Notes: generated by a model from the sequence alone, not told the origin. Counted from the stretch's first letter, positions 2,620 to 56,739 are shown. The stretch: 64,000 nucleotides of DNA from Bacillota bacterium (GCA_017417045.1 JAFPZZ010000004.1:3030-67029); one strand, 5' to 3'. Made by a program: numbers and translations.

Positions 2620-4440
2620 TCATTTAAGGCACATTTCCCGCATCTTTTGCAGCATTTCGACCGTATCTCTGCGGTCCTTCGCGTACTTTTCGTGCAGCGA
2701 CGCAAGGTAGCCCGAGACCGAATCGGTGAGGATGGGGTTCAGGAACACGAAGGCGGCGAAGGGCATCTGGCGGCGCAGGACCGCGACGGCGTCCTTCATG
2801 GTCGTGATCTGTATGTCTTTAAATGGTGTTTTGCTCATGAGAGCGAGGTGAAAGTTCTTTTCTTCTTTCACCAGCCTGATGATCTCGGCGATGATCTCCC
2901 CGTATTCTTCGGGGCCGCAGGCGGCGGATATATCCGTGAGGTCCTGCGAGAAGTCTATCGTCATGTCGGGCCCGCGGTCTTCGGGGCCGGCGCACAGTAT
3001 CATGTTGACGCCTCTTTCCTTCAGATCTTCGCAAAAACGCCTGCGGAGCCTGCGGTGGGCGGCAAACGCTCTCTTCTTTTGCTCTTTGCTCAGACCGCTG
3101 CGCGAGAGCACGCGCCCGAGCAGGTCTTCGGGTACCACTGCGGGGGGAAGAGAGCTGAGCAGAAAGCTCCTGTCCCCGGGCTTTGAGGAGACGAGGCCGC
3201 GGTATTCCGCGGCAGTTTCGGGGGTAAAGGTCTTAAGAAAGGGCGAAGCCTCCGAAAGCATCGCCTCGAATCCGTGCTTTAAAGTTTCGAGCTCCTCCGG
3301 CTCCGTGAGATAATCATAGCGGCGGTCCTTCTCCCCGGCGGGGAAGAACCCGCTTATGCAGGCCCTGCCCTCGTGCAGGAAGAGGGTGTGCGAAAAGCGG
3401 GCGTGTCCCGCGCTCGTGAACACGTAGGGCTCTATCTTTCCCAAGATATACAGAGGGAACCAGCCTTTGACCGCGTCTATCATCTCTTCCGCCTGGCGAT
3501 CCACATTGTGTATGATCTTTATCCTTACGTCGCCTTGGACGCATCTCGTCATCAGCGAGGCCCAGAGGGCGAAGAAGTCCCGGTTTTCGGTCATCCAGTC
3601 CATGGGCTCGTCCGAGTAGAGCCGCAGCTCACCGCCTTCTTCCGCGGCGTCCGAGAGAAAACGGACCACGGCGTTCCTCAGGCCCTCCGCTCCCCGGTAG
3701 CGAGAGGCCTTTTCTATCGCGGGTAGAGCGGGAGCGGCGGGCGGAAGCTCTCTTTTCGGGCTGAAGGAATCCAGCGAACCCAGCAGCTTCTTCGCTATCT
3801 GGGGCCTGTCGTCCCCTTCGACGTCATAGAGCCAGTTCGAGAGAAAGCCCGCGTCCAGCTCGGCCGCGGATATGCCGCACAGAGCTGCGAGCTCTGCGGT
3901 CTTTTCGTTTCTTTCCGCGCGGCTCCTCAAAACCTCCGCCAGCTTTTCGGACAGCCTTTCGTTTCCGTGGGGAGAATAAATGCCCCTGCGGTAGCGGCTG
4001 ATCAGGGACACGTCGATATTGAGGAGGGCCGCCAGCTGGGCGTTGGAAAGGTCCAGCAGCTGCATGGCCCTGTCCAGCTTCTCCCCGAAGTTCTTTCTGC
4101 GTATCATCAGCGCCTGCCTGGTCCGCGGCTGCGAAGGCTGCCCGGGGAGGGCGATCTCCTCCGTGCCGTATAGCCAGGCCTTTATCGCCGGTATGAGTTC
4201 TTCCCTTGATTCGCCGGGGGCCCCGCAGAGCTCACGCAGCAGCGGGAGCATGTTCTCGTAGTCCGCGTAGCCGTAGACCCCTTCGGCGAAGACCGCGATG
4301 CTGCGGCTGCCGGGCTTGGGGACCCTGTTCCCCGTCTTGAGTCTTGAGATATTGCCGCATGAACAGCCCGCGAAGCGGGCGATGCCGGTATTCGTGCACT
4401 TGAGCAGCGAATAGAGCACTGTTATCCTTTCCGAAAGCAT
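2620..4440 (-). CDS. transcriptional regulator with two XRE-type HTH modules and a large uncharacterised C-terminal domain
   Basis: GGGAGGA lies 7 nt upstream of the ATG at 4440. Two HTH-like segments (NTGIARFAGCSCGNISRLKTG; LSNAQLAALLNIDVSLISRYRRG) are followed by ~400 aa with no motif I recognise. Divergent from the SLH gene. Confidence 0.7.
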   Translation of the reverse strand: MLSERITVLYSLLKCTNTGIARFAGCSCGNISRLKTGNRVPKPGSRSIAVFAEGVYGYADYENMLPLLRELCGAPGESREELIPAIKAWLYGTEEIALPGQPSQPRTRQALMIRRKNFGEKLDRAMQLLDLSNAQLAALLNIDVSLISRYRRGIYSPHGNERLSEKLAEVLRSRAERNEKTAELAALCGISAAELDAGFLSNWLYDVEGDDRPQIAKKLLGSLDSFSPKRELPPAAPALPAIEKASRYRGAEGLRNAVVRFLSDAAEEGGELRLYSDEPMDWMTENRDFFALWASLMTRCVQGDVRIKIIHNVDRQAEEMIDAVKGWFPLYILGKIEPYVFTSAGHARFSHTLFLHEGRACISGFFPAGEKDRRYDYLTEPEELETLKHGFEAMLSEASPFLKTFTPETAAEYRGLVSSKPGDRSFLLSSLPPAVVPEDLLGRVLSRSGLSKEQKKRAFAAHRRLRRRFCEDLKERGVNMILCAGPEDRGPDMTIDFSQDLTDISAACGPEEYGEIIAEIIRLVKEEKNFHLALMSKTPFKDIQITTMKDAVAVLRRQMPFAAFVFLNPILTDSVSGYLASLHEKYAKDRRDTVEMLQKMREMCLK

Positions 4441-4470
4441 GGCGTCGTCCTCCCGGAACCAATATATCAA

Positions 4471-4590: not shown

Positions 4591-4641
4591 GCCGCCGTTC
4601 GGGACCGAAAAGCTCGGCGGAACGGTCGCTATTTCTTTTTT
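4591..4641 (+). terminator. leader hairpin plus U-tract (possible attenuator) just upstream of the SLH gene RBS
   Basis: GCCGCCGTTC (4591-4600) pairs with GAACGGTCGC (4620-4629) with 1 wobble and 1 mismatch. It is followed by TATTTCTTTTTT, then the RBS GGGAGG. Confidence 0.4.
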
Positions 4642-4654
4642 GGGAGGTTTTTGC

Positions 4655-7600
4655 ATGAGAAAGAACAGACTCCTTTCCGTCCTGCTCTCACTGGTCCTGG
4701 TGCTGTCCATGCTGCCGATGACGGTCAGCGCGGCTGCTCCTGAGGCGGGCGGGACACCGGCCGCGGCTGTTGGCGCCGTGACCCTCTATGCCGATTACGG
4801 CAGCGGCTTTGAATTCCTTTCAGAGCTTTATTTCACCAAGAATGTGACGGAACAGACCGTCGAAGTAAACGCGCCGATCAAGGCTCTGCGCGTCGTCAAG
4901 GGCGAGTGCCTGGAGCTCGACCTCGACTGCCTGACCTTAAACGGCAAGGCGCCCGAGGGCTTTGAGCGCAAGCTCTCCGCCAAAGACAACGACCTCATCG
5001 AGGTCGAAGACTTCGCGGACTTCGTCCTTGAGGGCGAGGGCGAACTGCTCATAGCGGCCCGCGCGCCCAAGGCGCTCAAGGGAGAAGAGTATTCCTTCAA
5101 ATTCCCTTCGCTGGAAGGCCTTGAGGCCGTTCCCTCCGGCGAGTATTACGCTTACGTACCGGGCTCCAGATCCGGCAGCTTCTCTGATGGCGAACTCGTC
5201 GTTCCGGGCGAGTCCTATCTCTTCGTGAGCGAGATGTGCCATCCGGATTCCGGCCATCCCGACGCTCCCATGGACATCTACCTGGCTGACGACGGCGAGA
5301 CCCTCTATGTCTTCTTCGAAGCCTTCCTGGACAACACCTTCGATCACGGCAAGGACTTTGCCGCCGTCCACGTAAAAGGCGCGAAGGACGAAAAGATCTA
5401 TAAGGTCCATACCACCGAAGAGAACGAGAACGGCTGCTGGTGGTTCGAGTACACCGATTCCTCGGATGTTTACGACTGGCAGCATATGTGCTATGTCGTC
5501 GAGCTCCCCATGGTGGAACTTGAGACCGAAGACGGAACCCTGGCCCTGTCCTTCGAGTACTACGGTACCTCTTACGGCGGGGCGGAGCTGCAGAAACTTG
5601 GAATAGGGGAAGACTTCTTCGTTTCCCAGAGTTACATGGATCTGCAGAATGAATACGAGCAGAGCTACGGATACGAAAACAGATACAAGGACTGCCCGAT
5701 ACTTCCCGCGGTCGGAGAGACCGTGAATTCCGAAGGCGGAAACACGGCCGAAGGAGCATGGTGGCTCACGGCCTATGAGTCCGAAAGCGAAGAGTTCACT
5801 TTAGGCGGTGAGGAGAGCGGGCCGCAATACATCCTTACCCTTAACGGGGCTGTGATCGACAAGAAGAACGAGCTCTCGGACGCTCCTCTTCATATCTACG
5901 GGAATCTGATAATAGAACTGGCAGAGGGAACGGAAAATACCTTAAGCTGGAATGATGTCGACAGTCCCGAGCACAGCCTGCAGTATGAGGGACAGGAACT
6001 CATCATCAAGGGCGCCGGAACGCTCAATGTGACCGGGAGCACCAGATCCTCTGCCTTTGCCGGATGGGGCCAGTTTATCGGTATCGTGGACGGCGCTCAG
6101 GTAAATGTATCGCAGGAAGCGACCGCATACGGCAGCAGCTACACGGAAAACTATTATGCGATGTCGGCAAACTACCTCGTCGTTGACGGAGCATCTCTCA
6201 GTTCGAGAACTGATATCACGGCACCCTCCGGCACGGATACTCCTATAAGAGTCATAGGCATCTCATGCTATGACGAGCTGACGGTAGGTGACAGCGCGGT
6301 GATCGAGGTCTATGCTTCGGGCGCGGCCAACGGGGAACAGAACATCGGTTTGTCGGCAGATGATTATTATATCGAAGGCATCCTGCTCAGCCAGAAGGAA
6401 GGCGATGGGCCCGATACCGCGGAGGAGACAGAAGATCTGAGGAATACCTATTCCGGGACATACGGCTACGCGTTCTGGTCGATGCCCTACGTCAGGATAG
6501 AGACTCTCAAGACCTATCCCCTCTGGGTCGCCGATACCCAGGTCACTATCCTCAACGCGGAAGACCTGTCCGGCATCGAAGGCGTGGAGGGCGAGGCCAG
6601 CTACGATCCCGAGACCAATACCCTCTGTCTTGAGAACGCGTCGATAAGCACGCCCAGACGCAACACATCCGGCATCAGCGGCTCATATGATTCCATGGGC
6701 GTGATATATGCGGGCAACGACGACTTTACCATCTCCGTCAGCGGAGAGTGCTCGATCGGCATATCGGATGAGGTGGAGTCGGTAAGATCGATCGGATTCC
6801 TTATAGGAAACAAAACGGTATTGAGCGACGGTATCGGCCAAGAGACCGAAAAATCGGATTTCGATGTGAACATAGAGCTTGCCGAAGGTGCGGTCCTGAC
6901 GATAAAAGGCGGCGACGTCACCAACTACGGCGACATCAGCGCGATGGAGACCGTCGGTCTGCGCAGCAACAGCGTGGGCCTCATGACGGTGAGCGGCGCC
7001 GGTACCCTGGATCTCAGCGGCGGCGCGGGCGGCGAGCAGAGCATGGCGGTGATGGCTTACGGCGATCTTACCGTAGAAGAGGGCGTCACTATGAACTGCA
7101 CTGCCCTTGACGGCAGCAGCTCTATCGCTCTGGGCGTCCAGGGCGATCTGACCATAGACGGCGCGGTCGTAAAGGCTGAAGCGTGCACAGGCCAATTCAG
7201 CGCCGCCGTGTACGTGATGGGCAACATCGATCTTGAAGACGGCGAGCTGAGTGCAGTTGGATCGGACGCCATATATGTCGGCTGCGGAATAGGCCTCGGC
7301 GGCATGCTGACCGTGAACGGCGGCAAGCTTACCGCGGAGACAGGAAAGCTTATCGCCGAGGGTGAAGCCGCGGGGCACGGCAACAGCGCCGGCATCAGCA
7401 TGATGAAATTTGCGGTCAGACCGGGCGAAGAAGCGGAAGAAAGGGAGCAGGGCATAACCATCAACGGCGGTTATGTCGAGGTAAAGACCCTCGCCGATCC
7501 CGAAAGCGGCGTGGTCAGAGCCCTTGAGGCCGTTCCCGTTCTCGGCGAGGGCGTCACCGCCGCCGCCAGCGAAGACAGCGAAGGCGAAGATCTCGAGGAA

Positions 7601-8710
7601 TACGATCCCGAGAAGAACGAAGACTACAGATGGTTCCGCGTGCCCTTTGACGTCGAATTCACCGTGACCTTCGTCAATGAAGACGGAGAGGTACTGTATA
7701 CCGTCGAGGTCCCCTACGGCGAGATGCCCGTATACGAGGGCGAAGAACCCACCAAGGACGAAGACGACGACTACACCTACGAGTTCACCGGCTGGGATCC
7801 CGAGCTCGCCGAAGCGACCGAAGACGCGACCTATACCGCCGTCTTCGAAGCCACGGAGAAAGAACCCGAGGAGATCGAAGAGCCTGCCGCCCTCTACACC
7901 ATCAAGGTGAGCGGCGGAACAGCCGACAAGGACGAAGCCGAAGAGGGCGAGACGGTGACTATCACCGCGGACAGCAAGAGCGGTTATACCTTCAAGCAGT
8001 GGAAGGTGGCGACCGGCGGAGCGCTTGATCTCAACGAGACGGCGAAGAAGACCAGCTTCACGATGCCGGCGCATGACGTCGAGCTCGAGGCCGAGTTCAA
8101 GAAGAAGAGCTCATCCAGCGGCGGCGGCGAGGGCGTAAGCTCCGAGCCGGCGGCGAAGCCGCGTCATCCCTTCGTAGACGTGGCAAAGACAGCATGGTAC
8201 GATGACGCCGTACAGTGGGCCTGGGAGAACAAGGTCACCGACGGTGTGGACGATACCCACTTCGCCCCGAACAGCACCGCGACGAGAGCGCAGATGGTCA
8301 CCTTCCTGTGGAGGGTGGCCGGAAGCCCCAAGGCAGGCATCAGAGAGACTCCCTTTGAGGACATAGTCAAGGGCTCCTGGTATTATGACGCGGTCCTTTG
8401 GGCCTACGAGAAGGGCATCACCGACGGCACGAGCGAGACCCATTTCTCGCCGAGCCTGCCTGTCACCAGGTCGATGGTGGCGGCCTTCCTGTACCGCTAT
8501 GAGAAGTCTATAGGGGGCGGCTTCAAGGATCTTTGGGCTTTCGAGCTCGACTATCCCGATGTTGAGGATGTACCCGAGTACGCTTACGAGCCCTTCTGCT
8601 GGCTCGTCAAGGAGGGCGTGATCGAGGGATCCAACGGCAGGCTGATACCGCTCGAGCCCTGCCTGCGCAGCCAGATCGTGACCATGATGTACAGGTACTT
8701 CAGTCTCTAA
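4655..8710 (+). CDS. large cell-surface protein: signal peptide, ~1000-aa repetitive beta-rich region, two Listeria-Bacteroides/InlB-B-type repeats, three C-terminal SLH domains
   Basis: Signal peptide MRKNRLLSVLLSLVLVLSMLPMTVSAAAP. Flg_new-like repeats (FTVTFVNEDGEVLYTVEVPYGE..YEFTGWDP..ATYTAVF and YTIKVSGG..GYTFKQWKV). Three SLH units (FVDV..WYDDAVQWAWENKVTDG..THFAPNSTATRAQMVTFLWR, FEDI..WYYDAVLWAYEKGITDG.., YPDV..). Confidence 0.9.
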   Translation: MRKNRLLSVLLSLVLVLSMLPMTVSAAAPEAGGTPAAAVGAVTLYADYGSGFEFLSELYFTKNVTEQTVEVNAPIKALRVVKGECLELDLDCLTLNGKAPEGFERKLSAKDNDLIEVEDFADFVLEGEGELLIAARAPKALKGEEYSFKFPSLEGLEAVPSGEYYAYVPGSRSGSFSDGELVVPGESYLFVSEMCHPDSGHPDAPMDIYLADDGETLYVFFEAFLDNTFDHGKDFAAVHVKGAKDEKIYKVHTTEENENGCWWFEYTDSSDVYDWQHMCYVVELPMVELETEDGTLALSFEYYGTSYGGAELQKLGIGEDFFVSQSYMDLQNEYEQSYGYENRYKDCPILPAVGETVNSEGGNTAEGAWWLTAYESESEEFTLGGEESGPQYILTLNGAVIDKKNELSDAPLHIYGNLIIELAEGTENTLSWNDVDSPEHSLQYEGQELIIKGAGTLNVTGSTRSSAFAGWGQFIGIVDGAQVNVSQEATAYGSSYTENYYAMSANYLVVDGASLSSRTDITAPSGTDTPIRVIGISCYDELTVGDSAVIEVYASGAANGEQNIGLSADDYYIEGILLSQKEGDGPDTAEETEDLRNTYSGTYGYAFWSMPYVRIETLKTYPLWVADTQVTILNAEDLSGIEGVEGEASYDPETNTLCLENASISTPRRNTSGISGSYDSMGVIYAGNDDFTISVSGECSIGISDEVESVRSIGFLIGNKTVLSDGIGQETEKSDFDVNIELAEGAVLTIKGGDVTNYGDISAMETVGLRSNSVGLMTVSGAGTLDLSGGAGGEQSMAVMAYGDLTVEEGVTMNCTALDGSSSIALGVQGDLTIDGAVVKAEACTGQFSAAVYVMGNIDLEDGELSAVGSDAIYVGCGIGLGGMLTVNGGKLTAETGKLIAEGEAAGHGNSAGISMMKFAVRPGEEAEEREQGITINGGYVEVKTLADPESGVVRALEAVPVLGEGVTAAASEDSEGEDLEEYDPEKNEDYRWFRVPFDVEFTVTFVNEDGEVLYTVEVPYGEMPVYEGEEPTKDEDDDYTYEFTGWDPELAEATEDATYTAVFEATEKEPEEIEEPAALYTIKVSGGTADKDEAEEGETVTITADSKSGYTFKQWKVATGGALDLNETAKKTSFTMPAHDVELEAEFKKKSSSSGGGEGVSSEPAAKPRHPFVDVAKTAWYDDAVQWAWENKVTDGVDDTHFAPNSTATRAQMVTFLWRVAGSPKAGIRETPFEDIVKGSWYYDAVLWAYEKGITDGTSETHFSPSLPVTRSMVAAFLYRYEKSIGGGFKDLWAFELDYPDVEDVPEYAYEPFCWLVKEGVIEGSNGRLIPLEPCLRSQIVTMMYRYFSL

Positions 8711-8722
8711 AGGCACAGCGCA

Positions 8723-8757
8723 GCCTGCTTCGGCTGAATACCACAGCCGAGGCAGCC
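8723..8757 (+). terminator. hairpin downstream of the SLH gene
   Basis: GCCTGCTTCGGCT / AGCCGAGGCAGCC, a 13-bp stem with 1 mismatch and 1 wobble and a 9-nt loop. The downstream T-tract is only weak. Confidence 0.45.
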
Positions 8758-8848
8758 ACCTTCTTTACCCGCTTCATGAAAATGATAAAGCAGGCCTGTC
8801 GGTCTGTGATGAAGCAGGCACAGGCATGAAGACTTAAAGCCGGATAAA

Positions 8849-8887
8849 GGCACCCGGCGGACGTTCAAACGCGTCCGGCCGGGTGCC
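8849..8887. terminator. strong GC-rich hairpin, plausibly a bidirectional terminator
   Basis: GGCACCCGGCGGACG-loop-CGTCCGGCCGGGTGCC (15 bp, one bulge). T-rich sequence follows on both strands. Confidence 0.6.
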
Positions 8888-8975
8888 TGTTCATTTGCTC
8901 TTTTCGGGTATCTGTTTCATCGCGCGGGACAGCACTTTGCCAACTTTTCGCCCGACGATCGCTCTGAAAACGTTT

Positions 8976-9250
8976 TTACTTGATTATCGCCCTGAGCGCG
9001 TTCGAGCACTTCTTGTAGGCGAGGGCGGTGACGAGGGAAACTATGCAGTACTTGACCAGATTGAAGGGCAGGACCGCAAAGAGCATCATGGTCAGGTTGT
9101 CCTTGACCAAGGGGTTCACCTTGGAGCCCATGGCGACGATAGTCTCGGTGGAAAGGCCGTAGAGCTTTCCATAGAGGGGGAACATGACGAAGGCGTTCAT
9201 GAAGACGTAAAGGACGCTGGTGAAGATGGTCGCGCAGACGAGGCCCTTTA
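8976..9250 (-). pseudogene. 3' fragment (C-terminal ~90 codons) of an ECF-transporter S (substrate-capture) component
   Basis: LKGLVCATIFTSVLYVFMNAFVMFPLYGKLYG..MLFAVLPFNLVKYCIVSLVTALAYKK matches the last TM helices of ECF S components. The N-terminal half is absent: the frame closes at ~9268 and unrelated DNA follows. Confidence 0.55.
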
Positions 9251-9271
9251 GGGGGAAGCTTTTTTACATAG

Positions 9272-9309
9272 CCTGGTCACGATACGTTTTCCGTGATCAG
9301 GCTTTTTTA
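9272..9309 (+). terminator. orphan intrinsic terminator (no intact upstream gene on this strand)
   Basis: CCTGGTCACG-loop-CGTGATCAGG (10 bp, one G-T pair) followed by CTTTTTTATTT. Confidence 0.5.
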
Positions 9310-26347: not shown

Positions 26348-27706
26348 ATGTCAGAGGACAGAGGACCGAAGATCCAGACCATAAGCGTATCTGAAAAGCA
26401 CGTTAAAGCAAGGATAGCTGCGTTTATCCTTGCTTTTATCGTGGCTCTGGCGGCCTTTGTGAACGGCTTTCTTTCCATAGGAAACACCAAAGAGGGCTAC
26501 TACGACCTGATCGCCGAAAAGGACGCCGACGCTCCATACTATGCCGCAGGGATCACTTATACCTGCCTGTTCGAAGGGAGCAGGGGAGAGGTCAGGAGCG
26601 CCGTAAGGGAGGCCGACGCGGCTTATTCACGCGCCCTGTCCTGGGCGTACAAGCTCTGCGATGCGGAAAAGGAATACGACGGCTATATAAACCTCGCGAC
26701 GATAAACAGGGTCATGAGAGAGCAGGCGGAAGAGAAGATCTCGCGCATGCTTAGCTCTCAGGCGCCGCTGTCCTCGGACTTTTCGGGGAAGGATAGTTCT
26801 TCAGGGGAGAAGTCGCTGCAGGACGGGGTAGTCCTCAGCGCGGACGGAGAGAGGGTGAGCTTTGAGCTGGCTGAGGAGCTTTATTCCGCCCTGAGATATG
26901 CCTACAGATATACCGGCCTCGGAGCGGGCTACGACCTCTTCGCGGGGCCTGTCTATTCGGAATGGAAGGATATCATCTATTCCGAGGATCCGCAGCTCTA
27001 CGACCCCTTAAACGATTCCAGCATGGCCGAAAGGCTCGAAATGCTCGCCTCGCTGAGCGCCGACTTCAGCCAGTTCAACCTGAGCTTCAACGACGAGGAT
27101 TACAGCGTCAGCGTTAAGATCCCCACTGCCGTATACATCTCGCTGGACGCTCTTGAGAGCGACGCCCCGCTGATAGACTTCGGGGCGCTCCATGACGCTT
27201 TCATGATCGAGATGTTGCTATCAAGGCTCGATATGTCGGGTCCCTTTGGAAAAGGCGTCGTAAAGACGAACGACGGTCTTGAGCTGGATCTCAGGACAAA
27301 CAGCGTATATCTCGCCCTCGACAGGAGGACGGGCGAGAACGCCGCAGGAGAAGGCGCGTACCGACTGATAAAAAGAACGGACGGCGGCGAGTGGGAGCTG
27401 AGCGGCGTCCACGCTTCGTCTTATGAGATCGCATCCTCCGCTGGCTCGGGGACGCTCAGAAGAGATCTCTTCTTCGACGAGTACAGCGGATCGCCCGGAT
27501 CTTACGTGAGCGAGTACTACGCGCTCTATGAAAAGGAGACGCGCATAGATACGGAGAGCCATGAGCTCGCGTTCATGCTCTTTAAGATGCTGTCGGCGGC
27601 TTCGGCTGCGGACGGGGAGAGCGTTGATTCGAGGCAGCAGGCCCTTAGGAGCCTTGCTCCAAAGTCCGCTTCCTCCAGCCATATCGTGATGGAGTACGCA
27701 CAGTGA
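26348..27706 (+). CDS. membrane-anchored protein of unknown function (single N-terminal TM; faint ApbE-like motifs)
   Basis: TM helix ARIAAFILAFIVALAAFVNGFLSI. Motif-level echoes of ApbE/Ftp (GAGYDLFAGPVYSEW; IDFGALHDAF; LDRRTGE). The stop overlaps the next start (GTGA). Confidence 0.6.
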   Translation: MSEDRGPKIQTISVSEKHVKARIAAFILAFIVALAAFVNGFLSIGNTKEGYYDLIAEKDADAPYYAAGITYTCLFEGSRGEVRSAVREADAAYSRALSWAYKLCDAEKEYDGYINLATINRVMREQAEEKISRMLSSQAPLSSDFSGKDSSSGEKSLQDGVVLSADGERVSFELAEELYSALRYAYRYTGLGAGYDLFAGPVYSEWKDIIYSEDPQLYDPLNDSSMAERLEMLASLSADFSQFNLSFNDEDYSVSVKIPTAVYISLDALESDAPLIDFGALHDAFMIEMLLSRLDMSGPFGKGVVKTNDGLELDLRTNSVYLALDRRTGENAAGEGAYRLIKRTDGGEWELSGVHASSYEIASSAGSGTLRRDLFFDEYSGSPGSYVSEYYALYEKETRIDTESHELAFMLFKMLSAASAADGESVDSRQQALRSLAPKSASSSHIVMEYAQ

Positions 27707-32718: not shown

Positions 32719-33294
32719 ATGACAGACAATACAAAATTACAGGAAATATGTGATAAGCTTTCCCAGCAGAGGCTTCCCAGATGGGATGAACTGCCCGATC
32801 TCGAGCTGTATATGGATCAGCTGCTGTCGCTGATAAGGCGCTATCTGATCGATTATCCCGGCATGGGCGAGAAGGGCCTGACAGCCGCTATGGTCAATAA
32901 CTACGTCAAACTCAAGCTGATACCTGCCCCGCATAAGAAGAAATACGGCAGGGAACATCTCGCGTATCTTCTGATAATCTGCGTGCTCAAGCCTATAATC
33001 CCCATCGCGGACATAGCCGCAATGATAGATGGCAAGATCGAGGAGAACAGCTTCACCGAGCCCGTATACAGGATGAGCGGCGACTCTCCCGTTGAGGTCG
33101 AGCACTGCGAGACCGTATACAACAGCTTCTGCGAGGGCTTCGAGAGCGTCTCAAGGGAGGTTGCCGAGAAGGAGCTCGAGAGCCTTCCGAAGGGCGAGTC
33201 CAGATACTCTGCCATGATGATATCCGCGCTCAAGGCCCAGACCGAGCTCTCAATAGCGCTGGGGCTCATCGAAGAACAGAAGTCGAAGAAGTAG
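32719..33294 (+). CDS. DUF1836 domain protein
   Basis: LPDLELYMDQLLSLI..GLTAAMVNNYVKLKLIPAPHKKKYGREHLAYLLIICVLK matches the DUF1836 core. AAGGAG RBS before the ATG at 32719. Confidence 0.75.
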   Translation: MTDNTKLQEICDKLSQQRLPRWDELPDLELYMDQLLSLIRRYLIDYPGMGEKGLTAAMVNNYVKLKLIPAPHKKKYGREHLAYLLIICVLKPIIPIADIAAMIDGKIEENSFTEPVYRMSGDSPVEVEHCETVYNSFCEGFESVSREVAEKELESLPKGESRYSAMMISALKAQTELSIALGLIEEQKSKK

Positions 33295-33335
33295 GGCGGG
33301 ACGCCATTAAAGACTGCGACAAGGAGGAATGCGAA

Positions 33336-34745
33336 ATGATAAAGGATCCCTCTTCTTTTTCCATTGCGGATATCGCGGAAGGGCTTAAAAAGGGAAGCTT
33401 TACTTCGGTCGAGCTCGTCCTGAGCTTCCTGCGCGAGATAGCCGAAAGGGACAGCGCAGGCCCCTGCATAAACAGCGTGCTGGAGATCAATCCCGACGCT
33501 CTCGACATAGCGGAGTCCCTCGACCGCGAATACGCCCAGAAGGGCCCCAGAGGCCCTCTGCACGGAGTTCCAGTGCTGATCAAGGGAAATATCGACACCG
33601 GCGACAAGCTGCACACCAGCGCGGGTTCCCTGGTAATGGCGGACAATTTCGCGCTGGAGGACGCAGCCCTGGTGAAGGAGCTCAGAGCTTCGGGAGCGGT
33701 GATACTCGGCAAGGCGAACCTCACGGAGTGGGCGAATTTCCTCGCGCACGGCATGAGGGGAGGTTACAGCTCGCTCGGCGGACAGGTCAATAATCCGGCC
33801 GGAGAATGCCTTGAGATAGGAGGCTCGAGCTCCGGAAGCGCCGCGGCGGTAGCGGCGGGCTTTTGCACCGCAGCCGTAGGCACCGAGACCAACGGGTCCA
33901 TACTCCATCCCGCGACAAAGGCAGGGGTCGTCGGCATCAAGCCCACGAAGGGTCTCGTGAGCCGCAGCGGGATAGTCCCGATATGCAGCTCCTTCGATAC
34001 TGCCGGGCCTCTTGCTAGGAGCGCCCGCGACGCGGCCATGCTGCTCTGGTGCATGATCGGATATGACGAGGATGACCCCGCGACGCATTACCGCGGAGAT
34101 CATGAGCTTCCGGACGAGAGATTCTTCGAGGGCGCGAGCCTGAAGGGAAGGCGCATCGGGCTCGTGCGCAGACCTTATATAGATATGCCGGATGAAGCCT
34201 TCGAACATTACGACGCCGTATTTGACGCCGCGGAAAAGGCCGGCGCAGTACTCGTCCCCGTAGAGCTCGCCCCCGCCGACCCCAGATCCGCCACGCTGGT
34301 CGAGATGTACGAGATCAAGCGCTGCATGGCAGCCTATCTCGCTAAAGGACATACGACTTCGCTCAGGTCTCTTAAGGACATACTGGACGCCAACGAGGCC
34401 GATCCTGAGCGATGCTTAAAGTACGGGCAGGAGAGGCTCAGGGAGTCTGACGAGATAGGCAGCGGAAGGCTGAACGAGCCCGAATACATCGAGGCTCTCG
34501 GGGCCATATACGAGAGCCGCGGGCGCATCGACGCTCTTCTGAAGGAGAATCAGCTCGACTGCATACTCATGGCGCACTATACCAATATCTCTCCGGTATC
34601 AGGCTATCCGGCCGTCGCGGTCCCCGCGGGAAAGGGCAGGGACAGCGGGCTTCCGTACGGCGTGAGCCTTCTCGGTACCGCGGGCTCGGACTTCGAGCTC
34701 TGCAGGATCGCTGATGCGCTGGAAAAGGCCCTGGTCCGCAGCTGA
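33336..34745 (+). CDS. amidase-signature family amidase
   Basis: GGSSSGSAAAVAAG signature and the KGNIDT Lys region. Confidence 0.85.
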   Translation: MIKDPSSFSIADIAEGLKKGSFTSVELVLSFLREIAERDSAGPCINSVLEINPDALDIAESLDREYAQKGPRGPLHGVPVLIKGNIDTGDKLHTSAGSLVMADNFALEDAALVKELRASGAVILGKANLTEWANFLAHGMRGGYSSLGGQVNNPAGECLEIGGSSSGSAAAVAAGFCTAAVGTETNGSILHPATKAGVVGIKPTKGLVSRSGIVPICSSFDTAGPLARSARDAAMLLWCMIGYDEDDPATHYRGDHELPDERFFEGASLKGRRIGLVRRPYIDMPDEAFEHYDAVFDAAEKAGAVLVPVELAPADPRSATLVEMYEIKRCMAAYLAKGHTTSLRSLKDILDANEADPERCLKYGQERLRESDEIGSGRLNEPEYIEALGAIYESRGRIDALLKENQLDCILMAHYTNISPVSGYPAVAVPAGKGRDSGLPYGVSLLGTAGSDFELCRIADALEKALVRS

Positions 34746-50281: not shown

Positions 50282-50286
50282 TAAAA

Positions 50287-50311
50287 GACCGCTTACGCGG
50301 CCTGTTTTTTT
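50287..50311 (+). terminator. short hairpin plus T7 downstream of mntP
   Basis: GACCGC-TTAC-GCGGCC (one mismatch) followed by TGTTTTTTT. Confidence 0.55.
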
Positions 50312-50402: not shown

Positions 50403-51167
50403 TTACATATACCTGGTTATGGTAATATTTATCCTGTCCTTGCGGCTCATGCCGCCTATCTCCTTTAGAACGGCCTTTCCCTTGCCCCTCAGGACTATCT
50501 TGTCTCCTTCGGAGACCTCCGCGTCGGGCTTAAGGCACTGCATGCCGTTTTTGTATACCAGACCTGCGCGCACCGCTTCCTGAGCCTTGCCCCGGGCGAG
50601 CCTGAATGCGGATCCGACGACGCTGTCGAGCCTCAGGCTTGCTACCGTGTCGTGAGCGTCTTCTGTGCGTATCTCCCCGAGATCGAGCTCCGAGAGGGGA
50701 GCCGTCCTCACAGTCAGATTGTTTCTCCCGGCCTTGGTATATTCGCTGAGCAGGAAATCCTCCATCTCCCTAAGTATTAATATATCCGCGCCGTCCGGCC
50801 GGACTATGATGTCTCCTACGACCTCGCGCTTTATCCCGAGGCCCAGTATGGAGCCGAGATAATCCCTGTGAGTGAGCTGCCTCGAACCCTTAGGCGACGA
50901 GACCTTGAGAAGGGACAGGGGACAGTCGTCTCCTTCCGCGAGCTGAGCCTCGTCCATGTAGTCGGGGAGGAAGGCCATGATCCTGCGCTCCGCGTCGTCG
51001 TAGCCTCCGAAGAGAGAGAAGCGGGCCTTCAGATCCCTCGCTAGCTTCTCGGCGAGGGCTGCCTGGCGCATGTCAAGAAAGGCTGTATGGGTCAGTGCGT
51101 ACTGATCCTGACAGCTCCGTATCCTGTCTTCGATCTGCGCCAGCAGCAGTCTGTCTTCTTCCTGCAT
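50403..51167 (-). CDS. ylmH: YlmH-like RNA-binding S4-domain protein
   Basis: Collinear with B. subtilis YlmH: ..FLDMRQ..FGGYDDAERR..; HRDYLGSILGLGIKREVVGDI; C-terminal S4 segment SLRLDSVVGSAFRLARGKAQEAVRAGLVYKNG. Confidence 0.8.
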   Translation of the reverse strand: MQEEDRLLLAQIEDRIRSCQDQYALTHTAFLDMRQAALAEKLARDLKARFSLFGGYDDAERRIMAFLPDYMDEAQLAEGDDCPLSLLKVSSPKGSRQLTHRDYLGSILGLGIKREVVGDIIVRPDGADILILREMEDFLLSEYTKAGRNNLTVRTAPLSELDLGEIRTEDAHDTVASLRLDSVVGSAFRLARGKAQEAVRAGLVYKNGMQCLKPDAEVSEGDKIVLRGKGKAVLKEIGGMSRKDRINITITRYM

Positions 51168-51235
51168 CTTGCGTTCTCCGCTTTCTTCCTGTCGCTTCAG
51201 AGGGGCAGCGCCGAAGCCCCGGCCCTTTCCCTGTC

Positions 51236-53827
51236 TTATTCCTTCTTATCTATCCTAGCCACGTCGCCGAGCCTTATGCGGCCGGGCGAATGCGCAGCTA
51301 TTATACCGCTTATCTGAGCGTCCGCGAGTTCAACCTCGGCCCGCATCTCTCGCGAGGACATCCTCTTCACGCCCTGCCTCAGGGCGGCCAGCTGTATCAT
51401 CGCGTCTGAGCTCACGACCGAGATGGAATAATCTTTCCTCATCTCGTGCACGAGCCTCTCTATGTAGAGGTCGGCGCTCTCCCTTTCTTTGGTGTAGAGT
51501 ATGTGTATACCTCCGGCGTCCTCGGTGCCTCCAGGCCCGGGCCTCCTGTAACCGTCAAAGATCAGCATGAGCTCGCAGCCCCTGAAGCTGCGGTAGTTTA
51601 TGAGTATCTCCGCCAGGCTGTCCCTCGCGGCGCCCACGTCGGCGTCAGCGAGCTTTTTCAGCTCTTCCCAGGCGTAGATGATATTGTAGCCGTCGACGAT
51701 GAGGTATTCCTTCTTCGCGGGTCCGCTCTTTGACTTTCCGGGCTTTCCGTATTCGTAGGTAACGGAGCTGTAGGAGGGCCTTTTCGGCGGTCCGAACTCC
51801 TTTTGTATTATGGCCTCGAGGGCTTTTTCGTCGAAATCCAGGCTGCCGCTGCGCAGCTTAGGCTTCGCAGCGCTTCCGGCCTCGCCGCTGTCAAGCCTTA
51901 TCCCGCTGTCCAGATGCATGAAACGCTCCACCGCGTCCCATTTGACTATGATGCCGCTGCCGTGAGAGCAGAACACCGAGTCGGGGGTATTCTCCACGTC
52001 GCGCTCGGGATCGTAGGCCGTCTCGGCTATCACCCTTTCAGTGTCGTGGCAGGGGAAGTAGCCGCAGAAGAGGCAGCTGAGCCTGCCCTTGCCCTTGGTA
52101 TACGACATCATTACAGTCTGGTAATCCCTCATCTCGGAGACCGGGGCGCGTCCTCGAAGCAGCATGCTGCCAGCGATCTCTTCGGGTCCCTCGAAGCTCG
52201 CGTGCATGGCCTTGATATCGTATATCGCGCGGCCTACGTGCTCTCCCGGGACCTGGAGGGTGAATTCGTACCAGGGCTCGAGCAGCACGTTCTCCGCCTT
52301 CATGAGGCCCTGCCTGAGGGCCCTGCAGGCGGCCTGGCGCATGTCTCCGCCTTCGGTATGCTTGAGGTGGTTTCTGCCCGCGACCAGGGTGACCTTGACG
52401 TCGGTGAGGGGCGAGCCCGTCAGCACACCGACGTGGGTCTTCTCCATGAGATTGCCTATGATGAGCCTCTGCCAGTTAAGGTCGAGGTCGTCCGTGGATA
52501 CGGCGGATTCGTATATGATGCCGCTTCCCGCGGGCAGCGGCTCCAGCAGCAGGTGCACCTCGGCGTAGTGCCTGAGCGGTTCGAAGTGTCCAACTCCCTC
52601 GACGGGGGAGGCTATGGTCTCGCGGTACAGTATCCTGCCCGCGCCTATCTCGGCGTCCAGCCCGAAGCGGTCCTTTATAAGCTCCTGCAGGACTTCGATC
52701 TGCACCTCGCCCATGAGCCGGGCCTGTATCTCCCTGAGCCTGGGATCCCAGACTATCCTTAGCGTCGGATCCTCCTCGGAGAGGGGAGAGAGCCTCCTGT
52801 AGGCCTCGGCGGGGTCCATACCCGGAACGCTTATGCTGTAGCTGAGCGCCGGCACGAGCACGGGGTCTTCCGCGTCGCTCTCGTATCCGAGCCCCTGGCC
52901 CGCGCGGCTCGCGCTGAGTCCAAGGACCGCGCATACGGCCCCGGCTTCGGCCCTTTTCAGGGTCTCAAAGCGCGTGCCCGAATACTCCCTTATCTGGGTT
53001 ATCTTTTCGCGAACGGTCTCGCCGCCGTACTCGTATTCAACGTCCTGTCTTATCTCGAGGCTCCCGCCGCTTATCTTGAGCCAGCTGAGGCGGTTGCCCT
53101 GTTCGTCGTGGGTGATCTTTATGACCCTGGCGCCGAACTCTTCCGGATACTCCGGAGGAATGATGAGACGCTCCATAGCTTCTATCAGCTCGTCCACGCC
53201 GTCCAGCTTAAGGGCCGACCCGAAGAAGCAGGGGAAGAGCTTCCTGTCCTTTATGAGCTTCGCGAGCTCTTCGTCGCCAAGCCTGCCCTCCGCGAGGTAT
53301 TTATCAAGAGCCTCCTCGCTGCAGGTCGCGGCGCTTTCGAAGATCTCGGCCTCCGGGGCGCTGAAATCCACCGCGGCGCTGCCCAGCTTCGCCTTCAGCT
53401 CCTCCATGATCTCGGCCCTGCTGCGAAGGCATATATCCATCTTGTTTATCCAGACGAAGAAGGGGATCCTGTGGCGCCTGAGGAGCTCTATAAGGGTCTC
53501 GCTGTGGGCCTGCAGCCCGTCGGGGCCGCTTATTATCAGCAGGGCGTAATCGAGGGACGATAGGGTCCTCTCCATCTCCGCGGAAAAGTCCGCGTGGCCC
53601 GGGGTGTCCTGCAGATAGACCCTGAGCCCTCCCATGTCAAAAACGGCCTGTTTGGAAAAGATGGTTATGCCTCTTTCCCTCTCGAGCCTGTCGGTGTCAA
53701 GAAAAGCATTTTTATGGTCGACCCTGCCCAGGCTGCGTATGCGTCCGCTGCGGTAGAGCAGGGCTTCCGAAAGGGTGGTCTTGCCGCTGTCGACGTGCGC
53801 GAGCACCCCTAAAACGATGTTTTTCAT
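51236..53827 (-). CDS. EF-G/TetM-like translational GTPase fused to a C-terminal Rae1/YacP-type NYN endoribonuclease domain
   Basis: G1 AHVDSGKT, G2 RGITI, G3 DTPGH, G4 NKMD plus EF-G-like domains. C-terminus LIVDGYNIIYAWEELK..LIFDG..ESADLYIE..VVSSD is collinear with YacP/Rae1. The start MKNIVLGVLAHVD matches TetM-family N-termini. Confidence 0.85.
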   Translation of the reverse strand: MKNIVLGVLAHVDSGKTTLSEALLYRSGRIRSLGRVDHKNAFLDTDRLERERGITIFSKQAVFDMGGLRVYLQDTPGHADFSAEMERTLSSLDYALLIISGPDGLQAHSETLIELLRRHRIPFFVWINKMDICLRSRAEIMEELKAKLGSAAVDFSAPEAEIFESAATCSEEALDKYLAEGRLGDEELAKLIKDRKLFPCFFGSALKLDGVDELIEAMERLIIPPEYPEEFGARVIKITHDEQGNRLSWLKISGGSLEIRQDVEYEYGGETVREKITQIREYSGTRFETLKRAEAGAVCAVLGLSASRAGQGLGYESDAEDPVLVPALSYSISVPGMDPAEAYRRLSPLSEEDPTLRIVWDPRLREIQARLMGEVQIEVLQELIKDRFGLDAEIGAGRILYRETIASPVEGVGHFEPLRHYAEVHLLLEPLPAGSGIIYESAVSTDDLDLNWQRLIIGNLMEKTHVGVLTGSPLTDVKVTLVAGRNHLKHTEGGDMRQAACRALRQGLMKAENVLLEPWYEFTLQVPGEHVGRAIYDIKAMHASFEGPEEIAGSMLLRGRAPVSEMRDYQTVMMSYTKGKGRLSCLFCGYFPCHDTERVIAETAYDPERDVENTPDSVFCSHGSGIIVKWDAVERFMHLDSGIRLDSGEAGSAAKPKLRSGSLDFDEKALEAIIQKEFGPPKRPSYSSVTYEYGKPGKSKSGPAKKEYLIVDGYNIIYAWEELKKLADADVGAARDSLAEILINYRSFRGCELMLIFDGYRRPGPGGTEDAGGIHILYTKERESADLYIERLVHEMRKDYSISVVSSDAMIQLAALRQGVKRMSSREMRAEVELADAQISGIIAAHSPGRIRLGDVARIDKKE

Positions 53828-54039
53828 ATGCGGTATTATATCATCGCCCGCGGCATAAACCAACAGAAGGCGGAGCTTTTATGGGCGGCGGCCTTACGGG
53901 GCTCTTTTTCATATCCTAAAGGTATGATGATACCCATGATATATGTATTTTAAATAGTTTCTCCCCGGGGATATTTTATATCTGTGGTCCCAAGGGACCT
54001 TTTAAGACTTTTTGTCCCGGTGGTCAAAGGAGGATCTAT

Positions 54040-55320
54040 ATGGGAAACTGTGCGGTAGTTGGAGTCAACTGGGGAGACGAAGGCAAGGGCAGGATGGTGG
54101 ACCTCATAGCTGAGGATTACGACGTGGTCGTACGCTTTCAGGGCGGCGGCAACGCCGGCCATACCGTGGTCAACGAGAAGGGAAGCTTCGCGCTGCATCT
54201 CCTTCCTTCCGGGATATTCAGAAAAGGCGTTGTGAACGTGCTCGGAAACGGGGTCGCCCTCGACCCGGAGAATCTCTGGCTCGAGATACAGGCGCTCAGG
54301 GATAAGGGCATAGATATAACGCCGAAAAACCTCAGGATAAGCGACAGGGCGCCGCTTCTGATGCCCTGGCACAGGAGGCTCGACGAGCTCGAGGAGGAGA
54401 GGCTTGCGGACAAGAAATACGGCTCCACCAAGCAGGGCATCGCGGCTTTTTATTCCGATAAATATCAAAAAAAGACTGTGCTTGCGGGCGAGCTGTTCTA
54501 TCCGGACGAGCTCCGCTGCCATCTTAAGGACATAAGCGAGTGGAAGAACCTCATACTGACGGAGGTATACGGAGCCGAAGCGTATACCGAAGAGATGCTG
54601 GAGAAGTGGATCTCGGATTTCTGCGAGCCCGTTAAGCCCTTCATCTGCGATACGGGAGCCTTCCTGAGGGAAGCCGCGGCTGAGGGAAAGAGGGTACTCT
54701 TCGAGGCCCAGCTCGGGGCGCTGAGGGATCTCGATTACGGCATCTGTCCCTATACCACCTCTTCCAATACGCTCGCCCGCTACGCCCCCATAGGCGCAGG
54801 CGCGCCTACCGTCGTTCCCGACGAGGTGATAGGCGTCGTAAAGGCTTATTCGACCTGCGTAGGGGAGGGGCCGTTCGTAAGCGAGCTCTTCGGCGAAGAA
54901 GGAGAGAAGCTCCGCGCTGAAGGCCGTGAATACGGCGCCAAGACCGGCAGGCCGCGCAGGGTCGGCGCTCTGGACCTCGTGGCCACGCGCTACGGGGCAG
55001 AAGTGCAGGACGCGAGCGTCATCGCCGTCACGAAGCTCGACGTATTGAGCTGCATGGAAACTATACCCGTCTGCGTACGCTACAGGGTGAACGGCGCCGA
55101 GACCGAGAGCTTCCCGTTCCCCGCGCTGCTGGCCGGCGCCGAGCCCGTTATCGAGCGCGTAAAGGGCTGGGGCTGCGATATCTCCGGCGCGAGGAAGTGG
55201 GAGGACCTGCCCGAAGCCGCCAGGAGCTACGTCGATATGATAGAAAAGGCCGCCGGTCGTCTCGTGAGATATATCTCCGTCGGACCCGAGAGGGACAGCA
55301 TAATAATCAGGGAGGCATGA
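54040..55320 (+). CDS. purA: adenylosuccinate synthase
   Basis: GVNWGDEGKGRMVDL, GGGNAGHTV and TTKQGIG-like (STKQGIA) motifs. AAAGGAGG RBS. Confidence 0.95.
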   Translation: MGNCAVVGVNWGDEGKGRMVDLIAEDYDVVVRFQGGGNAGHTVVNEKGSFALHLLPSGIFRKGVVNVLGNGVALDPENLWLEIQALRDKGIDITPKNLRISDRAPLLMPWHRRLDELEEERLADKKYGSTKQGIAAFYSDKYQKKTVLAGELFYPDELRCHLKDISEWKNLILTEVYGAEAYTEEMLEKWISDFCEPVKPFICDTGAFLREAAAEGKRVLFEAQLGALRDLDYGICPYTTSSNTLARYAPIGAGAPTVVPDEVIGVVKAYSTCVGEGPFVSELFGEEGEKLRAEGREYGAKTGRPRRVGALDLVATRYGAEVQDASVIAVTKLDVLSCMETIPVCVRYRVNGAETESFPFPALLAGAEPVIERVKGWGCDISGARKWEDLPEAARSYVDMIEKAAGRLVRYISVGPERDSIIIREA

Positions 55321-55323
55321 GAA

Positions 55324-56739
55324 ATGACAGACAGATACGAATCGCCGCTCTCGTCGCGCTATGCCTCGGGCCATATGCTCCGGCTCTTCTCCCAGGACAA
55401 CAGGTACTCGACCTGGAGAAAGCTCTGGGCCGCCCTTGCGAGGGAGGAGATGAAGCTCGGCCTTCCTATAATTCAGGAGCAGGTGGACGAGCTCGAAGCC
55501 CATACTGAAGATATCGACTACGACGTGGTCAGGGCCAGGGAAAAGGAAGTCCGCCACGACGTGATGGCGCACATATACGCCTACGGAAAGGCCGCGCCTT
55601 CGGCCGCGGGCATCATACACCTCGGGGCCACGAGCTGCTACGTCACTGACAACGCCGACCTCGTTATATACAGGGACGCTCTGCTCCACATACGAAAAGA
55701 GCTGCTCTCCCTGATATCGATCATGGCGGCCTTCGCGAAGGAATATCGGGCGCTCCCAACTCTGGGCTACACTCACTATCAGCCTGCCCAGCTCGTCACC
55801 GTGGGAAAGCGCGCCGCCATATGGATGCAGGACTTCGTTTCCGATCTGGAAGACGTCGACCACCTGCTCGCCACTTTGAGGTTCCTCGGCTGCCGCGGCA
55901 CCACGGGGACAGAGGCGAGCTTCATGGAGCTGTTCGGAGGGGATGAGGAAAAGATAGACGAGATGAACAGGGCCCTCGCGGCGCAGTTCGGCTTTTCCTC
56001 CTGCTTCGACGTCTGCGGCCAGACCTATCCCCGCAAGACTGACAGCAGGATACTCTCCGTGCTGTCCTGCATAGCGCAGAGCTGCTACCGCCTCGCGGGC
56101 GACATAAGGCTGCTGCAGCACGACAGGCAGATAGAGGAGCCCTTCGAGGACGATCAAATAGGATCCTCGGCCATGGCATACAAGCGCAATCCCATGCGCT
56201 GCGAGAGGATATGCTCGCTGTCGAGATATCTCATGGCCGACGCCATGAACGCCCCCATGACGGCTTCGGCGCAGTGGATGGAGCGCACCTTGGACGATTC
56301 CGCCAACCGCCGCATCTCCATGCCAGAGGGCTTCCTCTGCGCGGACTCGGTGCTGAGGCTGTGTATAAACGTGACGGGCGGGCTCAGGGTCAATCCTAAG
56401 ATGATAGAAAAGAGCGTCGAGGAGTATATGCCCTTCATGGCTACCGAGGACCTGCTCATGGAAGCGGTGAAGAGGGGCGGCGACAGGCAGGAGCTCCACG
56501 AGATCATCAGGAGCTGCTCCATGGAGGCTACCGCCCGCATGAAGAACGGCGAGAGCTGCGACCTCCTGGAGAGGCTCGCGGCCGAGGAAAGCTTCGGACT
56601 CAGCTCGGACGAGATAAAGAACATACTCTCCCCGTCGGCTTATACCGGAAGGTGCGCGGCCCAGGTCGACGCCTATCTCGAAAAGCTCGCGCCTATCCTG
56701 GCCGAAGCTGAGGAGATGGACGCCGAGATCAGCCTGTGA
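55324..56739 (+). CDS. purB: adenylosuccinate lyase
   Basis: YESPLSSRYAS N-terminus and the fumarate-lyase signature GSSAMAYKRNP. Starts 3 nt after purA. Confidence 0.95.
   Translation: MTDRYESPLSSRYASGHMLRLFSQDNRYSTWRKLWAALAREEMKLGLPIIQEQVDELEAHTEDIDYDVVRAREKEVRHDVMAHIYAYGKAAPSAAGIIHLGATSCYVTDNADLVIYRDALLHIRKELLSLISIMAAFAKEYRALPTLGYTHYQPAQLVTVGKRAAIWMQDFVSDLEDVDHLLATLRFLGCRGTTGTEASFMELFGGDEEKIDEMNRALAAQFGFSSCFDVCGQTYPRKTDSRILSVLSCIAQSCYRLAGDIRLLQHDRQIEEPFEDDQIGSSAMAYKRNPMRCERICSLSRYLMADAMNAPMTASAQWMERTLDDSANRRISMPEGFLCADSVLRLCINVTGGLRVNPKMIEKSVEEYMPFMATEDLLMEAVKRGGDRQELHEIIRSCSMEATARMKNGESCDLLERLAAEESFGLSSDEIKNILSPSAYTGRCAAQVDAYLEKLAPILAEAEEMDAEISL

Follow-up and report, generated by a model that had tools for sequence, protein, structure and literature searches.

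What might a protein do that carries, in one polypeptide, both a complete translation-factor GTPase and an endoribonuclease of the Rae1/YacP type? The question is raised by a locus in a 64,000-nucleotide stretch of DNA from a Bacillota bacterium (GCA_017417045.1, JAFPZZ010000004.1:3030-67029; hereafter the window, with positions counted from its first letter), in which a long open reading frame (ORF) encoding such a fusion is followed by ylmH. Proteins of this kind have been reported twice in silico. Atkinson 2015 described ten clostridial species whose Tet-subfamily proteins had gained an NYN domain like that of YacP, and suggested assaying these proteins for ribosomal RNA (rRNA) RNase activity (PMC4342817); Matelska et al. 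2017 recorded 'TetM-NYN_YacP fusion proteins' in some Clostridia without settling on a role for them (PMC5499597). The first-pass annotation of the window, which knew of no characterisation, was thus right with regard to experimental work but not with regard to these two reports. Our analysis adds the scale of the family, explicit criteria that exclude a TetM-type function, a mini-domain and tether between the two enzymatic modules, and a recurrent pairing with ylmH, of which our full-text searches gave no mention and which appears to be unreported. The reading that we favour, with slightly better than even confidence, is that the fusion acts as a ribosome-docked, GTPase-gated Rae1, an mRNA endonuclease for the rescue of stalled ribosomes.

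One reading frame for a translation-factor GTPase and a Rae1-type nuclease

The ORF lies on the minus strand and comprises exactly the 863 codons first assigned to it, from an ATG at 53827 to a stop codon at 51238-51236, and Pfam domains bear out the three parts proposed for its product, a GTPase, a linker and a C-terminal NYN domain (Table 1). Motifs G1-G5 of the GTPase, including the catalytic histidine of DTPGH, are present and are kept in 73-74 of the 74 full-length homologues (~40-55% identity to the window protein) that underlie our conservation counts: G15, K16, T17, T55, D74, G77, K129 and D131 occur in 74/74 sequences and H78 in 73/74, the exception being the N of NKxD, which is N, T or S across the homologues. 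For domain II, despite its low Pfam score, the fold is confirmed by AlphaFold2 (AF2) and by Foldseek matches to EF-G. In the full-length AF2 model (predicted local distance difference test (pLDDT) 79; predicted template modelling score (pTM) 0.56), the GTPase core and the NYN domain are confident and their relative orientation is not fixed. Foldseek returned EF-G as the best structural match (E 1e-51) and TetM with E 2e-42; the predicted fold is of the five-domain EF-G/TetM type. The collinearity with TetM/TetO pointed out in the first-pass annotation extends over residues 1-593 (against TetO residues 1-613, E 1.6e-70). Two tips of domain IV, GHFEPLRHYAEVH (residues 413-425) and HLKHTEGGD (487-495), are family-specific, and their residues are kept in 69-74 of the 74 homologues.

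The C-terminal part scored 136.8 bits with the NYN_YacP model (PF05991), against a gathering cutoff of 24.6, and aligned with B. subtilis YacP/Rae1 (PDB 5MQ8/5MQ9) over ~134 residues (E 1.6e-18). The motifs LIVDGYN, FDGY, ESADLYIE and VVSSD were all found in the fusion protein. D712, D758, D786 and D808, all four present in 74/74 homologues, align with B. subtilis D7, D53, D81 and D104, and D7N D81N is the published catalytically dead Rae1 mutant (PMC10351889). The search with the domain model and the alignment of acidic residues both support the earlier NYN_YacP assignment, just as motif presence and conservation support the claim that GTPase and nuclease active sites are intact. Because the G motifs and the four NYN aspartates persist almost without exception despite such modest overall identity, both enzymatic modules must be regarded as under strong purifying selection.

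The two modules had been described as joined by a ~70-residue Lys/Pro/Ser-rich linker. A tether does exist, but it is not merely low-complexity sequence: a conserved mini-domain precedes it and a conserved helix lies within it. The mini-domain (residues ~593-655) gave no Pfam match; Y605, D610, S617, F619, C620, H622, G623, W630 and H638 are found in 74/74 homologues and C593 in 73/74. In the full-length AF2 model its block-mean pLDDT is 60-88, and the C-x26-C-x-H-x15-H spacing sits on a predicted beta-hairpin plus helix. This arrangement suggests that the CCHH constellation is a candidate metal (zinc) site, one without counterpart in TetM and EF-G. Modelled in isolation the mini-domain folded poorly (pLDDT 57.5), and this model was dropped as a fold-search query. 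Within the tether helix, L670 and G679 occur in 74/74 homologues, and the helix may be a docking motif. The spacing from H638 to D712 is 64-109 residues, with a median of 70, in the main subfamily (74 sequences). Such a constrained length, taken with the invariant residues, points to a fixed geometry between the modules and argues against an accidental fusion. In a second subfamily (P0198, P0199, P0226 and P0165) the tether from domain V to the NYN domain is much longer, at ~185-240 residues; its member P0198 was also seen to carry a ~300-residue insertion inside the G domain.

Could the ORF be an assembly join of two genes, an artefact that the first-pass annotation had itself raised? A GTDB scan with one genome per species gave at least 600 matching stretches, and our locus counts are taken from the best 80 of these. 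GTPase and NYN domain share one ORF in 79/80 independent loci, the remaining locus being cut by a contig end, and the identical Pfam architecture was seen in 120/120 of the best protein clusters (52-100% identity) from a 5.8-billion-protein collection. Since the single-ORF architecture recurs across independent loci and protein clusters, the fusion is neither a product of chance nor an assembly join. The idea that short representatives are split versions, with mini-domain and NYN but no GTPase, was likewise rejected. An exhaustive search with the C-terminal 268 residues returned 266 clusters (50% identity) at E<=1e-30, whose full-length members are mostly 830-960 aa; the 46 short entries have start points spread over the interior of the protein and resemble fragments cut off at the edges of contigs.

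As for the start codon, an alternative reading from a TTG at 53863 gives 875 aa, and an identical database protein (P0001, 875 aa) has been called in this way. This TTG overlaps the candidate -35 element. We favour the ATG at 53827 because the N-termini of homologues read MKxxVxGILAHVD, and by this sequence comparison the public gene model probably has 12 codons too many.

Table 1. Features of the fusion locus, in window coordinates; residue numbers refer to the protein read from ATG 53827
Feature	Position	Strand	Basis or details
Candidate promoter	53835..53863	-	TTGGTT 53863-53858, 17 nt, TG-n-TATAAT 53843-53835, 7 nt to ATG
Translation-factor GTPase-NYN fusion, coding sequence	51236..53827	-	863 aa plus stop; ORF reading, domains, conserved architecture
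G domain, residues 4-222	53162..53818	-	Pfam GTP_EFTU E 2.7e-45; AHVDSGKT, RGITI, DTPGH, NKMD, GSALK
Domain II, residues 231-311	52895..53137	-	Pfam EF-G_D2 23 bits, below gathering threshold
Domain III, residues 344-395	52643..52798	-	Pfam EFG_III, 29 bits
Domain IV, residues 397-512	52292..52639	-	Pfam EFG_IV E 5.8e-17
Domain V, residues 514-595	52043..52288	-	Pfam EFG_C E 7.8e-18
Mini-domain after domain V, residues ~593-655	51863..52051	-	Conservation and AF2; candidate CCHH site C593, C620, H622, H638
Flexible tether, residues 656-708	51704..51862	-	AF2 pLDDT < 50 except helix 667-678
Tether helix motif D-E-K-x-L-E-x-I-x-x-x-E-F-G-P, residues 666-680	51788-51832	-	Conservation
Rae1/YacP-type NYN domain, residues 709-840	51308..51703	-	Pfam NYN_YacP E 9.3e-40
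ylmH, 254 aa	50403..51167	-	Pfam YlmH_RBD E 7.9e-15; homologue of S4-domain factor of ribosome-associated quality control
Terminator-like hairpin plus T-run	50286..50303	-	~100 nt after ylmH stop

Spread of the family and its distance from tetracycline resistance proteins

At least 600 GTDB species carry the fusion, and its best 80 loci belong to Oscillospiraceae, Ruminococcaceae, Acutalibacteraceae, Faecousia, Oscillibacter, Lawsonibacter and a number of Lachnospiraceae. The genes are abundant in gut metagenomes; a single cluster has 6,319 member sequences. Conservation across Clostridia families is core-like, and inheritance is probably vertical.

Several homologues bear the PGAP name 'TetM/TetW/TetO/TetS family tetracycline resistance ribosomal protection protein', which would make the fusion a resistance protein with an accessory nuclease domain. 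Atkinson, too, put the GTPase in the Tet subfamily and raised resistance as a possible role. The best NCBIfam model is indeed tet_protect (NF012153), yet its score of 387.2 bits is half of the cutoff of 775, and the Tet(M)-, Tet(Q)-, Otr(A)- and M/W-specific models all fall far short, at 221-279 bits against cutoffs of 900-1425; the EF-G model TIGR00484 reached 247.4 bits against 659. For all the collinearity with TetO/TetM over residues 1-593, the TetM sequence YSPVS in loop III of domain IV, which is needed for tetracycline release, aligns to HLKHT here, a replacement that is invariant or nearly so in the family. Taken by itself, domain IV matches EF-G (E 6.5e-8) better than TetO (3.9e-6) or TetM (1.3e-4), and H487 aligns with the functionally important tip histidine H573 of T. 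thermophilus EF-G. Compared with EF-G, loop I of this domain has 4 residues fewer, differs in sequence and lacks GGRGQ. The fusion also tracks host phylogeny across at least 600 species, unlike tet genes with their patchy spread, and its neighbours are housekeeping genes with no mobile-element signature. We therefore disfavour the resistance reading as highly improbable; by these comparisons the fusion does not appear to be a tetracycline-resistance protein. The warning given with the first-pass annotation, that such ORFs are easily mistaken for tet(M)-like genes, holds in view of the PGAP names and the score set beside them, and automatic annotation of some fusion genes in this way can inflate resistome counts.

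In the window, the neighbours are prolidase, NudC and MntP on one side and purA, purB and a LysR regulator on the other, with GS-III, AsnB, PyrG, a peptide ABC transporter and an S-layer protein farther away; no mobile-element genes were found around the fusion in the window. Ribosome-dependent RNases such as RelE, and NYN/PIN toxins, exist, and the fusion might by analogy be an effector of defence, or one akin to a toxin, that stops translation through RNA cleavage guided by its GTPase, for instance under phage infection or stress. Stress or hibernation genes do lie near some loci (a hibernation-promoting factor gene in L087, a RelA_SpoT-domain gene near P0009), but the fusion gave no PADLOC match, has no antitoxin-like partner and lies in no defence island. 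Its housekeeping flanking genes and its core-like, probably vertical conservation across Clostridia families also speak against such an effector, which we consider very unlikely.

Pairing with ylmH and organisation of the two genes

The gene downstream of the fusion begins 68 nt past the fusion stop on the same strand, as first described. Its product is a full-length YlmH homologue, residues 3-252 matching residues 10-255 of B. subtilis YlmH (8S1P chain V, E 1e-34); YlmH_RBD scores above its gathering score, whereas the S4 and N-terminal Pfam models remain below theirs. A Shine-Dalgarno sequence, GGAG at 51176-51179, lies 8 nt before its ATG.

In 23 of the 76 GTDB loci whose downstream sequence is long enough to tell, ylmH follows the fusion directly on the same strand, with gaps of -26 to +245 nt; many overlap the fusion stop. 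The 22 of these loci that were included in a neighbour-joining tree all fall into one clade (22 species), so this signal could reflect a single ancestral event. The window gene belongs to a different clade, and the pairing recurs there: in its two closest relatives, with 68% and 64% identity, ylmH lies at +6 and -17 nt, respectively, and in another, with 59%, at +2 nt, and the ylmH-paired relatives have entirely different flanking genes. Two further arrangements were seen, with ylmH divergent and upstream of the fusion (L006), or 2 kb off on the opposite strand beside a hibernation-factor gene (L087), and the linkage thus takes at least four forms, by arrangement or lineage. When the flanking ORFs were all clustered without bias, ylmH stood out as the only strongly recurrent neighbour; the next candidates, an ABC ATPase (12 loci), PepT (10) and a two-component system (8-10), are not comparable. 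The association of the fusion with ylmH is therefore real, and several arrangements of it have either arisen or been preserved. Other relatives, including L005 and some at 50-59% identity, have no ylmH nearby, and the linkage is a lineage-specific feature and not one that defines the family. The fusion-ylmH module proposed from the window alone thus recurs in several lineages but, at 23/76 loci, is not general.

Further neighbours were seen at single loci. The relative with 64% identity has a gene for a WYL/WCX-domain regulator immediately upstream of its fusion-ylmH pair, in the same orientation and 24 nt from it (L084 4008-4976); genes with helix-turn-helix domains have been listed as potentially co-expressed with such fusions (Matelska 2017, PMC5499597). 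Sporadic neighbours with a link to translation or stress are an adjacent, divergent gene for hibernation-promoting factor (L087; positions 3381-3914 and 8564-9304), spo0A directly downstream (L001 12871-13644) and a RelA_SpoT-domain gene ~3 kb away (P0009 context).

Upstream of the fusion, the sequence TATAAT (53840-53835) ends 7 nt before the ATG and is preceded, one base upstream, by the TG of an extended -10 element. No Shine-Dalgarno-like sequence occurs at -18..-3 of this ATG. The place of TATAAT and the lack of a Shine-Dalgarno sequence agree with what had been read at the outset. A simple promoter scan passed over this site because its -35 element matches at 3/6 positions, and flagged instead a weaker TTTAAA/TATCAT pair ~100 nt upstream. 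The layout of a -35 element, 17 nt, TGnTAnAAT, 6-7 nt and ATG is shared by 11/68 homologous loci, with L005, L006 and six from the ylmH clade among them, which makes the leaderless mRNA suggested earlier plausible here. On the other side, 43/68 homologous loci have a Shine-Dalgarno-like sequence, and leaderless transcription would then vary between lineages.

The pair is flanked by divergent purA upstream and convergent mntP downstream. A terminator between the two genes was considered and found unsupported, the 68-nt spacer holding a hairpin without a U-tract (z-score -0.31). The terminator-like site beyond ylmH is likely to be the end of the two-gene unit. Given this site, the orientation of purA and mntP and the lack of a U-tract in the spacer, fusion and ylmH are likely co-transcribed. 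Between 49500 and 54500, no structured RNA or riboswitch was found by Rfam search at E<=0.1.

Elsewhere in the window, an 849-aa ORF (53950-56499, minus strand) runs antisense to purA and purB; with a third-position GC content (GC3) of 0.59, against ~0.78 for real genes here, it is almost certainly spurious, of a kind common in GC-rich sequence. Four large ORFs of 452-616 aa (170-1795, 2620-4470, 26348-27706 and 32901-34352) gave no Pfam match at E<=1e-6; GC3 is gene-like in three of them (0.67-0.77) and 0.60 in that at 170-1795. An S-layer-homology protein of 1356 aa (4640-8710) is encoded beside Pfam-less large ORFs.

A possible role at stalled ribosomes

As a stand-alone enzyme, Rae1 cleaves mRNA endonucleolytically and in a translation-dependent manner; it acts on ribosomes that have stalled or collided, and it feeds transfer-messenger RNA (tmRNA) (PMC12407103, PMC13622287). 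The Condon/Braun laboratories reported in 2025 that its cut lies at the tail of the stalled ribosome, 12 nt upstream of the A-site codon, and explicitly revised their own earlier A-site proposal (PMC12407103); a September 2026 preprint described Rae1-dependent tmRNA tagging on collided ribosomes (PMC13622287). While the idea of a ribosome-targeted RNase, put forward in the first-pass annotation, is reasonable in general, its premise that Rae1 acts from the A site has thereby been superseded, and the argument that GTPase and nuclease share one site fails as stated. B. subtilis YlmH binds the 50S-peptidyl-tRNA complex like RqcP and supports alanine tailing by RqcH, and it may also act in late 50S biogenesis (PMC11317155).

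Against this background, the events that we infer for the fusion would run as follows. The five-domain GTPase module, in its GTP form, would bind the factor-binding site of a ribosome that is stalled or without a productive A-site ligand, with the tip of domain IV (HLKHTEGGD and GHFEPLRHYAEVH) inserted toward the decoding centre. The mini-domain, possibly zinc-binding, and the ~70-residue tether would keep the NYN nuclease near this ribosome or a collided neighbour. The nuclease would cut the mRNA, leaving a truncated message whose ribosomes could be cleared by trans-translation or ribosome-associated quality control (RQC); after cleavage, GTP hydrolysis would release the factor. In the lineage of the window, co-expressed YlmH would couple mRNA cleavage to the clearing of obstructed 50S subunits, a coupling suggested for the two-gene unit because B. 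subtilis YlmH binds the 50S-peptidyl-tRNA complex and supports RqcH.

Several points weigh against this scheme. The Rae1 cut, ~12 nt upstream of the A-site codon, lies on the mRNA exit side of the ribosome, whereas factors bind on the entry side. This would require either a tether that wraps around the 30S subunit or, in a disome, a GTPase seated on the trailing ribosome. The latter arrangement is attractive because the trailing ribosome's entry side borders on the exit side of the leading one, and the nuclease might then reach the mRNA between the two, although this geometry is purely conjectural. The fusion could either replace or supplement stand-alone rae1 in the genomes that carry it. About 70% of the surveyed species are without ylmH linkage, some relatives at 50-59% identity among them, and our search of the full-text literature found no experiment on any member of the fusion family.

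Nor need the substrate be mRNA. A docked NYN domain could instead cut 16S or 23S rRNA, or a bound tRNA, and thereby retire damaged or stalled ribosomes or take part in late-assembly rRNA processing, with YlmH acting in late 50S biogenesis. EF-2-like GTPases act in eukaryotic ribosome maturation, which would fit such a role. The NYN_YacP family was, moreover, first tied to rRNA/tRNA processing by its gene neighbourhood (the mrnC-yacO-yacP operon), and the particles pulled down with YlmH were mostly 50S subunits resembling late assembly intermediates (PMC11317155). The NYN domain of the fusion, however, closely matches the Rae1 family, and the sequence offers nothing to tell possible substrates apart. 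We regard an rRNA or tRNA target as unlikely, though well ahead of resistance or toxicity.

Returning to cleavage of mRNA, we tentatively consider a bolder version that we think improbable as a whole: the fusion might be a self-contained sensor of stalls or collisions, which cuts the mRNA, remodels or splits the ribosome by an EF-G-like stroke of its GTPase and hands the obstructed 50S subunit directly to the co-encoded YlmH. If this were true, it would provide a MutS2-independent entry into bacterial RQC, used by abundant gut Clostridia. By Rosetta-stone logic, it would also imply that stand-alone Rae1 of Bacillus, cyanobacteria and chloroplasts is recruited via the GTPase-associated centre or works with a translational GTPase.

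A Rae1 domain fused to a factor-site GTPase in hundreds of gut and rumen Clostridia species offers a testable answer to how Rae1 is recruited. Because the complex could be locked with GDPNP, the fusion would make a convenient target for cryo-electron microscopy. Should the ylmH pairing prove functional, it would link mRNA cleavage to 50S-based RQC, which are viewed as separate pathways in B. subtilis. What makes the protein of interest is that it gives experiments a direct way into the question of how nucleases of the Rae1 type engage stalled ribosomes.

How does the fusion compare with the systems it recalls? TetM and TetO (NF012153; PDB 3J9Y, 4V6V) are its best sequence matches (E 1.6e-70 to 2.5e-70) and share with it the collinear five-domain build and a shortened G domain, but the fusion falls below every curated Tet cutoff, lacks YSPVS, has its own invariant domain IV tip and ~270 extra C-terminal residues, and lies in a chromosomal housekeeping context. 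EF-G is the best structural match overall, with the closest domain IV and the same tip histidine; the G domain of the fusion is ~54 residues shorter than that of EF-G, and loop I differs by the 4 residues noted above. With Rae1, the fusion shares the family match of its NYN domain, the catalytic D7 and D81 and two further aspartates, and presumably ribosome-dependent RNA cleavage. Rae1 is, however, a stand-alone protein of ~170 aa, whereas the NYN domain here forms the C-terminal end of an 863-aa protein, whose recruitment would be in-built and GTP-gated. The downstream gene resembles that of YlmH/RqcP (PDB 8S1P) over its full length, but ylmH of B. subtilis resides in the ylm operon near the dcw cluster, and here it is paired with the fusion among unrelated housekeeping genes.

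In concept, and judging from the literature, the closest parallels are SmrB of E. coli and Cue2/NONU-1 of eukaryotes, mRNA endonucleases activated by collisions, which are brought to stalled or collided ribosomes and create a substrate for rescue, together with Hbs1-Dom34, a GTPase complex that probes the A site and is used in rescue. The nucleases SmrB, Cue2 and NONU-1 have an SMR fold, unrelated to the NYN fold of the fusion, and none of these systems combines an A-site GTPase and a nuclease in one polypeptide.

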